A stretch of 64,000 bases of DNA, from positions 120,581-184,580 of the forward strand of contig CAJARJ010000018.1 in the NCBI GenBank assembly GCA_903944345.1, given 5' to 3'. The stretch is from Candidatus Omnitrophota bacterium. GTDB taxonomy: Bacteria > Omnitrophota > Gorgyraeia > Zapsychrales > Fredricksoniimonadaceae. The position numbers were made by a program, and so were the translations under genes. Shown here piece by piece: positions 7,373 through 46,987 of this stretch; position 1 is the first letter of the stretch, and the number at the start of each line of letters is the position of its first letter. The notes below the pieces were generated by a model. It saw only the letters and a program-made list of their open reading frames with translations. It had not been told where the DNA came from and made no database searches.

Positions 7373-8308
7373 TTAGAGAGCAGACTTCGTTTCCTGGCAC
7401 CGTATCAGCTCGACAAGTTCTTTTAATTTCCCGGAACCAATTCCCCGGCCAAGCTTGAAATGCACAATCCCTGCGCGTAACTGCATCCTGACAGTCTTGC
7501 GGATATTGATAGGAAAAAAACAATGCTTAACCGCACCGCAGTTGAAAAGGCGCGCAAGAACAAACTGACCCGCCTCAAACAACACCTTAAAATCTGACAT
7601 CTTTAGCATCGAGATCTTGTTCTGACGACTGATATAGGCGTAGTGATCGTAACAATTGCACCCGTTCGAACAATAGGTATTGGCTATAACAATAATTTTC
7701 TGCTGACTCTCAAGCGCCAGTTCCTTTAACAACGACTCTCGACGAGAATCCTGAGGGGTAAAAATAACCGCGTCATACTGCCTGCAATCAGCACGATACA
7801 TGGTCATGGTCTCCCGGGGAGTCAATATTCTGTCCGGAGCCACATACTTCGTACACGAACCAAAATAAGCCAACCTGTTGCCAAGGTCATGCCGAAGCCG
7901 GTCTTCAAGAACCCTGTTATTGATAATGACTCCGTTACGAACTCCGTACGTCTCGCCAAGCTCTGCCAATTTTCTTATCGGCTTCAACGCCGAGTCTTGC
8001 AGATCATTCGCTTCTACAAAAAGGTTGGTCAGTACAGCGTGAAAGGGAATACCTTTGGCATTGATCATTCTCACCGTACGAAAAAACTTGTCGGAAACCC
8101 GATCAAGCTGGGGCCTGCCCATTCTGAACAGAAACCTGTCCCACAAAAACTGTCCGTCCAGAGTGTAATTAAACCGCCCGCCGTGCAGCGGTGAATCCGG
8201 AATGCCCCCAAAGACACGTATTGCAACATCCGGCAACCGATTAAAGCGATCCAGCTGATTAAGAGAATACGAATATAGCGGCACTTCTATTGAATACTTT
8301 TTGGACAT
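7373..8308 (-). CDS. Hypothetical protein with Cys-rich motifs (CSNGCNCYDHYAY; FNCGAVKHC)
   Basis: A 311-aa ORF with no recognisable family. It sits downstream of the outer membrane protein gene on the same strand. Confidence 0.5.
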   Translation of the reverse strand: MSKKYSIEVPLYSYSLNQLDRFNRLPDVAIRVFGGIPDSPLHGGRFNYTLDGQFLWDRFLFRMGRPQLDRVSDKFFRTVRMINAKGIPFHAVLTNLFVEANDLQDSALKPIRKLAELGETYGVRNGVIINNRVLEDRLRHDLGNRLAYFGSCTKYVAPDRILTPRETMTMYRADCRQYDAVIFTPQDSRRESLLKELALESQQKIIVIANTYCSNGCNCYDHYAYISRQNKISMLKMSDFKVLFEAGQFVLARLFNCGAVKHCFFPINIRKTVRMQLRAGIVHFKLGRGIGSGKLKELVELIRCQETKSAL

Positions 8309-44317: not shown

Positions 44318-45364
44318 CTATTTCTGTAACTGCTCCGACAAGGACTGCCAGTAAGTAAGCAGATTTTGCCACGCCCCATCGGTACGAATATCATAACCCA
44401 GATTCAGCGCAGTATTGACGGCCTTGCTCGTCAAATGCAATTCTCCGGCCAGAAGCCCGTAACCGACATTAGCTATTCTAACGGAAAAAAGCTCAACTGC
44501 AAGCTTTCCCCCGGCCTTGACCAGCCGCTCAACCAGTTTCTTCTCGCGGGATTGGGGCAGATAAGACAAAAGACTGCCCAGCAAAGCCGCATTCACCGCC
44601 CCTCCCGAAGACAAATGCAACCCGGCCTGAAGAGCGTCCATGCGCTCGGCAGTGCCCTCGACCTTTAGCTGCCCTGATACCATCCCGTCAATCTGCTGCG
44701 GAACACTGGCATCAATATCCCCCATGAGCAGTGTGCTCAGCTGGTCCAACGCAAGGTCCAGCGTGTACCCGGCCGAAGCAAACTGAACTCCTAACGCCCC
44801 TGCAATATGACCGCCATAAGCTTCTGCCTTCATTTCCTCAAGGCGCAAAAAAGAGGCATCTCCGGAAAGTTTCCCTCGGGCGCTGGTCAGGCGAAGCTTG
44901 TCCCAGGTCAAAGACTGTAGCTGCCACTGGCCGTCAAAAACAGGCTGACCCGCAGGCCAGCTCAGGCGCAAAGCAACAGTTCCACCCGCCAGATGTCCGG
45001 GTTCCCAGCGCAGATCTGCCCCCTCAAGCACAAATTTCCAGACCCGCCCGGGACCAAAAACACTCCGCCAGCCGCGCCACTCCAACTGCTCCAGACGGAA
45101 TTCCAACGGTTTTCCCCGCAGGATCCCGGACAAAGAAAGGTTTTTCCAGACACACACACCTTCCAGGCGGCAGCGCTGCTCTCCGACGGTAAAACGCTCG
45201 AGAGAGAACTCCCTGAGCACCCGCCCGCAAACAGGCCCCGCCAACTGCCGCACCAGCCATGTCGAATTAGATAACCAGACAACAGCCGCACCGAGTGCCA
45301 GAACAAACAAAGCCAGCACCAGAACTACAGCCAGTCGTCTAGACCAGCCTGGCAGAAATTTCAT
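44318..45364 (-). CDS. YdbH-like (AsmA/TamB-related) protein, short form
   Basis: N-terminal membrane anchor. It is in the conserved neighbourhood ydbH-ynbE-ydbL. At 348 aa it is far shorter than E. coli YdbH (~880 aa). Confidence 0.5.
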   Translation of the reverse strand: MKFLPGWSRRLAVVLVLALFVLALGAAVVWLSNSTWLVRQLAGPVCGRVLREFSLERFTVGEQRCRLEGVCVWKNLSLSGILRGKPLEFRLEQLEWRGWRSVFGPGRVWKFVLEGADLRWEPGHLAGGTVALRLSWPAGQPVFDGQWQLQSLTWDKLRLTSARGKLSGDASFLRLEEMKAEAYGGHIAGALGVQFASAGYTLDLALDQLSTLLMGDIDASVPQQIDGMVSGQLKVEGTAERMDALQAGLHLSSGGAVNAALLGSLLSYLPQSREKKLVERLVKAGGKLAVELFSVRIANVGYGLLAGELHLTSKAVNTALNLGYDIRTDGAWQNLLTYWQSLSEQLQK

Positions 45365-46442
45365 CCAGCACCATCCTTCCCCGGGAAGTCGCCTTGATCC
45401 GCCCGTCTTCGTCGGTCAAAAGGCCATCCCGGACAAAAGAACCAAGAATTGCCCGACGGTCATCAGAAATCCGGACTCCAAAACGCTGTTCCAGCAAAAG
45501 AATATCCACACCTTCATTAAGCCTGAGTCCGAACAAAAAAGCTTCCATCAGCTTCCCCTGCGAAGAAAGCTGCTCGCTGCCAGTCTCTGCGCTGCCTGAA
45601 GCGGCCATCATGGAAAGATAACCCGGCAGCGTATCCGCATTCCAGAACCTGCGCCCGTCGATATGCGAATGCGCCGACATACCCAAACCCCAATATTCGC
45701 CCGCCCGCCAGGTATTAAGATTATAACGGGATTCGAAACCCGGAAACGAAAAATTACTGACTTCATACTGCCTCGCGCCCGCAGACTCAATCCGGGCGCG
45801 CACCAGTTCATAAGCCTCTGCCTGATCATCCGGGTCAACTTTCAGAGCACGGGCATAAAAAAGACTGCGCGGCTCGATCTCCAGCATGTACAAAGAAACA
45901 TGCTCACTGCCCAGGGCAAGAATCCGGTCGACATCGCGGGCAAGCTCGTCGACAGACTGTCCGGGAAAACCAAAAATAAGATCCACGTTAATGTTTTTGA
46001 AACCCGCCTGCCGCAGAATCCCGAATGCCTCGGCGGCACCAGCAGCCGTATGCCCGCGGCCCAGCCAGCGTAAACGTGAATCATCAAACGACTGAACGCC
46101 CAGACTGACCCGATTGGCCCCGGCAGCCCGCCAGGCCAGGGCCCGGGCAATATCGACACTCTCGGGATTGGCTTCAAAAGTAAACTCCGCCTGTTTATCG
46201 ACGGAGAAATTATCCGCAATCAGACGACCAAGACGCTCCACCCCTTGCCGGGAAAGAAGCGAGGGCGTTCCGCCTCCGACATACACCGGCCCGCACTCCT
46301 GCAGGGTCCGGTGCCCTGCTTCACGTTCCAGTGCGGCAAGATATTCTTCTTCTTTTCGAATAAACCCGGCCGAAACGGGAAAGGAACAGTACAGACATTT
46401 GCCCGCACAAAAAGGAATATGCACATACAAACTGCGCGCCAT
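45339..46442 (-). CDS. hemW: Radical SAM heme chaperone HemW (HemN-like)
   Basis: LYVHIPFCAGKCLYCSF radical SAM CxxxCxxC motif and a HemN C-terminal domain. Confidence 0.85.
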   Translation of the reverse strand: MARSLYVHIPFCAGKCLYCSFPVSAGFIRKEEEYLAALEREAGHRTLQECGPVYVGGGTPSLLSRQGVERLGRLIADNFSVDKQAEFTFEANPESVDIARALAWRAAGANRVSLGVQSFDDSRLRWLGRGHTAAGAAEAFGILRQAGFKNINVDLIFGFPGQSVDELARDVDRILALGSEHVSLYMLEIEPRSLFYARALKVDPDDQAEAYELVRARIESAGARQYEVSNFSFPGFESRYNLNTWRAGEYWGLGMSAHSHIDGRRFWNADTLPGYLSMMAASGSAETGSEQLSSQGKLMEAFLFGLRLNEGVDILLLEQRFGVRISDDRRAILGSFVRDGLLTDEDGRIKATSRGRMVLDEISARLV

Positions 46443-46570
46443 AAAATTATTTCTTATTTTTCGGAATATTGCTTACGGAAATAAAAACCACATCAGAACG
46501 AATTACAAATCACCGTCGAGAAATGAAACATTTTTTTTCACATCACATAATAAAAAATGTCAAAATTTTT

Positions 46571-46600
46571 TTGAATCTTTATCATCGGATGTTATTATAA
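46571..46600 (+). promoter_or_regulatory. Sigma-70-like promoter for the mini-ORF pair
   Basis: TTGAAT at 46571-76, a 17 nt spacer, then TATTAT at 46594-99. It lies in a very AT-rich intergenic region about 40 nt upstream of the first ATG. Confidence 0.4.
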
Positions 46601-46640
46601 ATCAAGAGCATACAAATACCCAGAGGAAAGGAGAAATCAT

Positions 46641-46718
46641 ATGCCCTGTTGCTGCAAAAAAACATCAAGCAAAGAAACAAAGAAGGCCCCTGCAAAGAAA
46701 GCGGCCAAAAAGAAATAG
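46641..46718 (+). CDS. Mini-ORF 1: 25-aa basic peptide MPCCCKKTSSKETKKAPAKKAAKKK
   Basis: ATG preceded by GGAAAGGAGAAA with a 5 nt spacer. Read directly from the sequence. Confidence 0.4.
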   Translation: MPCCCKKTSSKETKKAPAKKAAKKK

Positions 46719-46777
46719 ATTTCAGGTTTAGAATTCAAACACATCAACCCGTTCCAACCTCAGGAAAGGAGAAAACC

Positions 46778-46852
46778 ATGGCCGTTAAGAAAGCCGCTGC
46801 AGCCAAAAAGCCTGCAAAGAAGCCTGTCAAGAAGACCGCAAAAAAGAAGTAA
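46778..46852 (+). CDS. Mini-ORF 2: 24-aa basic peptide MAVKKAAAAKKPAKKPVKKTAKKK
   Basis: ATG preceded by an identical GGAAAGGAGAAA ribosome binding site with a 4 nt spacer. Followed 20 nt later by an intrinsic terminator. Confidence 0.5.
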   Translation: MAVKKAAAAKKPAKKPVKKTAKKK

Positions 46853-46873
46853 CAACTTCTTTTCTCTTTTGAA

Positions 46874-46910
46874 AAACCCTCTGCCTGAAACGGAGGGTTT
46901 TTCTTTTATT
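46874..46910 (+). terminator. Intrinsic terminator after the mini-ORFs
   Basis: Stem aaccctc/gagggtt followed by TTTTTCTTTTATTT. Confidence 0.6.
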
Positions 46911-46925
46911 TCAGATTTAAAGCAT

Positions 46926-46960
46926 AAAAAGGCGGCCCCGAAACGGACCGCCTTTATATT
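46926..46960 (-). terminator. Intrinsic terminator of pgi
   Basis: On the minus strand: aaaggcggtccgtttcggggccgccttttt followed by a T-run. Confidence 0.5.
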
Positions 46961-46987
46961 GTTCCCGACGCTGCTATCTGTCCTGCT

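Follow-up and report, generated by a model that had tools for sequence, protein, structure and literature searches.

The lysine-, alanine- and proline-rich (K/A/P-rich) DNA-binding tails of histone H1, chlamydial Hc2 and Pseudomonas AlgP are well established in composition, and H1-like tails of this kind are also found in chlamydial Hc1, Coxiella Hq1 and the C-terminal domain of mycobacterial HupB; H1-like proteins are roughly 60 to more than 200 aa long, often with a folded domain. Protamines and ScvA are short, extremely cationic proteins thought to condense DNA; they are Arg-rich or Arg/Gln-rich, and mammalian protamine P1 has cross-linking cysteines. ScvA and Hq1 are small basic DNA-binding proteins that mark the condensed-nucleoid, small-cell form of Coxiella (PMC4766238). 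The tiny ribosomal proteins bS22/mS38/eL41 and bL37 are likewise basic, with 24–33 aa, around 60% Lys/Arg (K/R) and strong expression. Here we describe a family of mini-genes encoding Lys-rich peptides of 12–33 aa, represented by two open reading frames (ORFs) in the 545-nt gap between hemW and pgi on a 64-kb stretch of DNA from a Candidatus Omnitrophota bacterium (the window, meaning the whole stretch analysed). These peptides are alike to H1-like tails in their AKKPAKKPVKK-type repeats, of which they would represent the tail alone, and to protamines and ScvA in being short and extremely cationic; unlike the latter two they are Lys-rich, and no homology to them is detectable. In size and charge they are similar to the tiny ribosomal proteins, from which they differ in their variable length, their use of Lys only, their lack of His and aromatic residues and, in some members, their prolines.

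Both ORFs lie on the plus strand, with coordinates and translations that agree with those of a preliminary description made from the sequence. ORF1 (46641–46718; MPCCCKKTSSKETKKAPAKKAAKKK, 25 aa) is of a three-cysteine type and ORF2 (46778–46852; MAVKKAAAAKKPAKKPVKKTAKKK, 24 aa) of a Cys-free type, and they were the sole ORFs to pass a lysine-rich filter across the whole window. The same strong ribosome-binding site (RBS) had been reported before both, and we found the Shine-Dalgarno (SD) 12-mer GGAAAGGAGAAA on the plus strand at 46625–46636, with GGAG 7 nt 5′ of the ORF1 ATG, and at 46763–46774, with GGAG 6 nt 5′ of the ORF2 ATG; these are its only two occurrences in the window, where 0.02 are expected. 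The two genes form one bicistronic operon with a common promoter and terminator. The promoter is of the σ70 type (46571–46598, plus strand), with a −35 hexamer TTGAAT at 46571–46576 and a −10 hexamer TATTAT at 46593–46598. The hexamers had been read correctly, but the spacer, given as 17 nt, is 16 nt long, and a TG at 46590–46591 (TGtTATTAT) makes this an extended −10 promoter. An A/T-rich tract 5′ of the −35 hexamer (46540–46570, plus strand) is a possible UP element. The unit is closed by the clean intrinsic terminator that the preliminary description had noted (46871–46911, plus strand), consisting of a 13-bp stem (46871–46903) with a CCCUC...GAGGG core and a T run.

These signals recur in relatives. 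The promoter layout there is TTG(A/C)AT, 16 nt and TGnTA(T/A)TAT, preceded by A/T tracts, and tracts equivalent to 46540–46570 are kept in 14 related loci (alignment A1). A homologous terminator in 14 relatives shows compensatory changes at four base pairs. The promoter and 5′ untranslated region (UTR) are kept across the clade whose peptides begin MATKKK and also in the window's own family, from which we infer strong, probably constitutive expression of the mini-gene unit.

We found the mini-genes throughout Omnitrophota hemW loci. The window's Pgi has its best relatives (57–77% identity) in Candidatus Omnitrophota genomes, and hemW lay within the flank in 21 of 80 Pgi-relative loci. All 21 of these contained a poly-lysine ORF of 12–33 aa, divergent from hemW and 100–250 nt upstream of it, with a strong SD (mostly AAGAAAGGAG) and its own terminator, CCCTCTG...CAGAGGG. 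After further hemW loci had been gathered through HemW homologues, at least one mini-gene adjoined hemW in 29 of the 30 Omnitrophota loci examined. These 29 loci yielded 35 family ORFs, all of which keep ATG, frame, stop and a GGAG placed 6–9 nt before the ATG. The peptides are 40–69% Lys/Arg, and the remainder is nearly all Ala, Thr, Val, Pro, Ser and Cys. Outside this set the genes are scarce: when 747 kb of Omnitrophota DNA were scanned for SD-preceded, K/R-rich ORFs, almost nothing else came up. A metagenome scan with HemW yielded nearly exclusively distant loci; 42 of these (HemW 30–49% identity, 232 kb), used as a negative control, contained no comparable ORF.

Among the loci gathered through HemW homologues, L128 (HemW 89% identical to that of the window) encodes both peptides, identical to the window's, and L129 (80%) encodes MPCCCKKSSSKETKKAP..., interrupted by the contig end. 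At 56% HemW identity, L136 is bicistronic like the window and lies beside a convergent pgi (MACCSSKKCTKKVTKKAPAKKAVKKTAKKK and MAVKKAAKKVAKKAVKKAVKKVAKKKK), while L130/L131 have one Cys-free gene. L132 and L134 (both 53%) carry both types as two separate promoter–terminator units, L133 (53%) carries one Cys-free gene, and L029 has a further mini-gene, MNCCCTKKKPSKKKAAKKK, at a contig end. The locus lacking a mini-gene is L135 (GCA_030688425.1; HemW 52%), in whose genome the gene may have relocated. The sequence upstream of hemW in that locus (L135:1–1500) is GC-rich, carries repeats of a motif (cttacgga…) and has another gene in the divergent position.

The preliminary description had proposed these ORFs as genuine mini-genes, and the variation among relatives points firmly to translated genes under purifying selection at the peptide level. 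In 22 pairwise comparisons of sequences of equal length, we counted 7, 4 and 68 differences at codon positions 1, 2 and 3, respectively; of the codon changes, 59 were synonymous and 11 non-synonymous. Length differences among family members amount to whole codons. Some peptides, MATKKKAKKKTAKKK and MATKKKTAKKKTAKKK for example, are unchanged between genomes with only 53–77% HemW identity although their coding DNA differs. Between the window and L128, all seven changes over ORF1 and ORF2 are third-position and silent: six in ORF1, including TAG to TAA, and one synonymous change in ORF2. Over the same pair, hemW is 87.6% identical in nucleotides, the hemW-proximal spacer is 25.8% diverged, and the promoter and 5′ UTR (46540–46640) differ at one of 101 nt. 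We regard the ORFs as translated genes because of the synonymous bias of the changes, the whole-codon length shifts and the scarcity of conserved RNA structure. Furthermore, AAA and AAG codons are so placed that runs of A have a mean length of 6.4 and never exceed 9, compared with a mean of 8.1 after shuffling. Such short runs would fit selection against the sliding of ribosomes on poly(A), an established mechanism.

A longer frame of 67 aa, initiated at TTG (46649–46852), had been raised as the gene that might be used instead. This frame exists, but we rejected it: the six silent ORF1 changes in L128 produce eight replacements in the TTG frame, which shows no protein-level selection, and in L132 and L134 each ORF type has a transcription unit of its own.

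One finding sits uneasily with selection on the peptides alone: nucleotide conservation of the coding sequence and UTRs exceeds peptide need, with 0–6 differences in 48–51 nt at 53–77% HemW identity, so that RNA-level constraints act as well. The preliminary description had named a small RNA (sRNA) as the alternative that would undo its reading, and we considered whether the locus encodes a functional RNA, either an sRNA or a dual-function transcript, with ORFs that are incidental or secondary. On its side are the nucleotide conservation of promoter, 5′ UTR, coding sequence (CDS) and 3′ UTR beyond what the peptide needs, a conserved small hairpin at the SD, and a conserved ability of the CDS end to pair with the 3′ UTR. 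This complementarity involves the initial ~24 nt of the 3′ UTR and reaches −8.6 kcal/mol over 30 native units, compared with −5.6 for shuffled UTRs (0 of 200 reach the native value) and −7.7 when units exchange their UTRs (2 of 200); in the window it is seen as a small hairpin (46842–46863, plus strand), part of the minimum free energy (MFE) fold, in which the last codons and stop (AAAAGAAGU) pair with the beginning of the 3′ UTR (ACUUCUUUU). These features are outweighed by the pattern of variation, which is mostly third-position and synonymous, by length changes in whole codons, and by the retention of ATG, SD spacing and stop throughout. The CDS is wholly different between clades while peptide composition is kept. 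Consensus folding (alifold) of 14 units recovered no conserved structure besides the terminator and a stem of 5 bp that involves the SD, and an Rfam 15 search gave no family at gathering score. With reading frames conserved in relatives and variation confined largely to synonymous third positions, the sRNA alternative is not supported, and we consider a functional RNA with incidental ORFs very improbable.

The 5-bp stem belongs to the MATKKK clade (alignment A1, columns 93–106; e.g., L028 at about 8151–8166, minus strand), where UCCUU shortly 5′ of the SD can pair with its AAGGA and C/U variation preserves G-C or G-U pairs. It may modulate translation in that clade; pairing of UCCUU with the SD was not seen in the window's own RBS regions.

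The peptides fall into two types. The Cys-free type begins MA(T/V/A)KK, and MA[TV]KK... counterparts of ORF2 were found in at least 25 loci. The three-cysteine type begins Mx-CC(C/S) and keeps its three Cys as CCC or CCxxxxC; examples occur in the window, L128, L129, L132, L134, L136, L017, L027 and L029, and L024 has a two-Cys variant. In a composition-preserving shuffle test, the likeness among Cys-type members went beyond composition (z = 4–6 for window ORF1, L136 and L027), and ORF1 compared with ORF2 gave only z = 2.55. Both types occur together in five genomes, spanning HemW identities of 53–100%. The pair had been taken for a local duplication, but a recent one does not hold up: since both types co-occur in lineages with 53–56% HemW identity, sometimes as separate units, they are old paralogue types. 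Nor is the identical RBS a sign of recent copying, because it is a phylum-wide motif, (A/G)GAAAGGAG.

The downstream gene is convergent in all loci examined, namely pgi in the window (46988 to about 48262, minus strand) and in L136, and tatC in L023, L028 and L134. This bears on the possibility that the ORFs are lysine-codon leaders or sensors that control an adjacent gene through attenuation or through the stalling or sliding of ribosomes. The ORFs are indeed very short and dense in AAA/AAG, with a terminator hairpin 3′ of them, but no locus examined has a same-strand gene next, neither the consensus nor the MFE folds contain an antiterminator alternative, the A runs are short and not slippery, and the non-lysine residues and Cys motif are conserved. 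The constant convergence of the downstream gene indicates that the mini-gene unit is stand-alone and not a leader or attenuator, and we find the leader explanation barely credible. In the window, a second terminator, serving pgi, lies on the opposite strand (46955–46928). An Rfam L20_leader match over the two back-to-back terminators (46835–46965) stayed below threshold (34.5 bits, gathering score 58.7), and we take it as a structural coincidence.

On its other side the unit adjoins hemW (45339–46442, minus strand), the divergent neighbour that served as our anchor for comparing loci and that encodes a radical S-adenosylmethionine (SAM) heme chaperone. The adjacency in 29 of 30 loci, which persists where the other flank is rearranged, could suggest that the peptides work with HemW or in the handling of metal or heme, as radical SAM substrates or partners (akin to ribosomally synthesized and post-translationally modified peptides) or, for the Cys3 form, as a metal or Fe–S carrier; the conservation of three Cys in the Cys type (CCC or CCxxxxC) fits such a role. 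Yet the neighbour is a housekeeping HemW equivalog (TIGR00539, 275.7 bits against a cut-off of 205.4) and not a specialised maturase, most members have no Cys, there is no leader/core architecture, and the 42 distant hemW loci have no such ORF. Synteny is broadly kept in Omnitrophota (mnmA-orf218-pgi; hemW-348aa-63aa-DUF1318), so the adjacency may be historical, and a functional link to HemW is, in our judgement, very unlikely. A link to mnmA, which modifies tRNA-Lys, was dropped, since the mini-gene is unlinked from it after flank rearrangement in L130, L132 and L133.

We next consider what the peptides might do. The explanation we favour, at about even odds, is that the mini-genes encode abundant oligocations that bind, neutralise or condense nucleic acid in the manner of an H1 tail or protamine. 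The peptides would be produced in large amounts and would act by charge rather than by fold. ORF2 has no acidic residues, the mini-peptides are predicted to be disordered, and charge-driven nucleic-acid binding is presumed for them as for H1-like tails. As gene-encoded oligocations they would bind and neutralise or condense nucleic acid, compare the H1 C-terminal tail, Hc2, protamine and ScvA, and the three Cys of the ORF1 type, which recall the cysteines of protamine P1, might speculatively add metal bridging or disulfide cross-linking as in mammalian protamines. The chlamydial comparison has a phylogenetic side, in that Chlamydia and Omnitrophota have the PVC-superphylum context in common. 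A bolder form of the proposal, in which a universal, highly expressed poly-lysine family supplies an encoded counter-ion or condensing agent for DNA and/or rRNA, a substitute for protamine or polyamines with a Cys3 variant that metal or disulfide could cross-link, is one we advance tentatively, as possible but not likely.

Database searches place the peptides in no described family. The resemblance to H1, Hc2 and AlgP put forward in the preliminary description stands for composition, but family membership is not supported. Pfam, NCBIfam and PDB sequence searches gave no match for any mini-peptide, and a Pfam scan at E ≤ 10 found no family, Hc1/HC2 included, for ORF1, ORF2 or their relatives. 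The expectation that annotation misses such genes was borne out: in the assemblies with listed gene calls, none was called on the mini-ORFs, and the gene called in the gap in one record of the window's strain is an antisense ORF of 35 aa. A look-up of ten exact peptides in a collection of 15 billion proteins found none of them (0 of 10), and we found no earlier description of these Omnitrophota peptides in the literature.

The strongest competing explanation is that the peptides are lineage-specific ribosomal mini-proteins seated in an rRNA pocket, as bS22 and eL41 are at the subunit interface and bL37 is in the 50S subunit, with the Cys and Cys-free forms parallel to those small ribosomal proteins that come as paralogue pairs, one zinc-binding and the other zinc-free. 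Size and composition agree, since bS22, bL37 and eL41 span 24–33 aa and the bS22 of Borrelia (Bbu) is 61% K/R (PMC10618245). The same work reports that bS22 and bL38 were unannotated in the Borrelia genome, that Msm bL37 lies outside operons and that the bS22 transcript is highly abundant, and its authors predict that more such proteins are undiscovered (PMC10618245). The expression signals of the mini-genes are also very strong and conserved, and ORF1 has an MPC N-terminus in common with Borrelia bS22. In a shuffle test with the bS22 reference pattern MP(S/C)G...THK(K/R)KKR...NRHKKK, ORF1 against Bbu bS22 gave z = 2.5 (p = 0.02, uncorrected for 30 comparisons), a score driven by the shared MPC start; ORF1 against Fjo bS22 gave z = 2.0, also uncorrected, and all Cys-free peptides gave z < 1 against bS22.

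Against a ribosomal role, seven mini-peptides gave no match at E ≤ 10 to the bS22 profiles (NF047430; PF08213, COX24_C), which have limited reach: the positive control Msm matches at 54 and 40 bits, and Fjo and Bbu bS22 miss both. No mini-peptide matched the bL37 profiles (NF047428, mycobacterial; NF047429, planctomycetal) or the eL41 profile (PF05162), whose controls scored 51.8 bits (bL37) and 46.3 bits (eL41). After multiple testing, there was no significant order-specific similarity to bS22, bL37 or eL41 in a shuffle test of low power, in which the genuine bS22 pair Bbu and Msm reached only z = 0.1. Lys is far above Arg in the mini-peptides, aromatic and His contacts are absent, and the ORF2 prolines argue against a helix. 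Overall, we judge a ribosomal role unlikely, though it deserves serious attention.

A nucleoid or polyanion role is favoured over a fixed ribosomal site because length (12–33 aa) and sequence drift while the K/A/T/P composition is held, because the peptides lack the Arg, His and aromatic residues by which rRNA-pocket proteins are typically marked and the ORF2 prolines are helix-breaking, and because other Omnitrophota proteins bear similar poly-K tails. DNA, or the nucleoid, thus seems a somewhat more likely target than rRNA. The proposed function draws on composition and gene signals. Several considerations weigh against the oligocation proposal: the Pfam scan gave no profile or sequence link to the H1, Hc1 or Hc2 families; members of 12–16 aa would bind DNA weakly at physiological salt unless very abundant; and an oligocation role does not account for the strict hemW linkage. 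In addition, the tiny, highly basic, unannotated proteins of this size known so far are ribosomal, namely bS22, bL37 and eL41 (PMC10618245).

The polycationic character also admits a role at membranes, with the peptides exported as antimicrobial or cell-penetrating effectors in a predatory or parasitic lifestyle, or serving as polybasic Cys-cluster anchors. Oligolysines are membrane-active, and MGCCC or MPCCC followed by a polybasic stretch recalls eukaryotic anchors that combine acylation with polybasic residues. The peptides have no signal peptide or hydrophobic face, however, and no transporter is adjacent; we know of no bacterial cytoplasmic S-acylation enzyme. Such a role therefore appears remote.

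The poly-K-tailed proteins of other Omnitrophota loci are encoded at L030:6038–6343, L035:7610–7909 and L048:8273–8713, all on the plus strand. They consist of a conserved domain of ~65 aa (…LRELLKNK.V..EI.KHLWIESQKAG.SIGIERATDEWLRL.A..W.KYHMP…) fused to a poly-lysine tail of 30–70 residues. The sole Pfam signal for the domain is DUF4032, below threshold (about 15 bits against 23.8). In L030 the tail carries a cysteine cluster, and in L030 and L035 the gene is immediately convergent with the mini-gene.

Two further observations concern the surroundings of the locus. The region 3′ of hemW (window 44318–45364, minus strand, and onward; also L123, L128–L134 and L136) holds a cluster common to several families, comprising a protein of ~340 aa with weak AsmA/GspN-like signals, an ORF of 55–63 aa, a DUF1318 protein and a convergent polyprenyl synthetase. 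An exact HemW look-up located the window's strain in several samples, where the intergenic region is 100% identical. Three short contigs of this strain (L126:1–160, L127:1–62 and L124:1–134) depart from the locus at the polypurine RBS or a T run into unrelated, AT-rich sequence, which in L126 and L127 looks ribosome-recycling-factor-like by eye; we take all three as assembly chimeras at low-complexity sequence.

If these readings are right, the mini-genes, with a smallest member of 12 codons, would count among the shortest protein-coding genes known to be conserved, and their products would represent a new class of component of the nucleoid or the ribosome. They form a phylum-wide gene set invisible to current annotation, and peptides as short as 12 residues under strong purifying selection offer a clean test case for micro-protein discovery. 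The pairing of Cys3 and Cys-free forms suggests a metal- or redox-responsive switch. Omnitrophota are described as largely ultra-small cells, and if the peptides are abundant polycations, they would bear on how DNA and ribosomes are packed in very small cells, in a phylum whose biology has hardly been studied by experiment.

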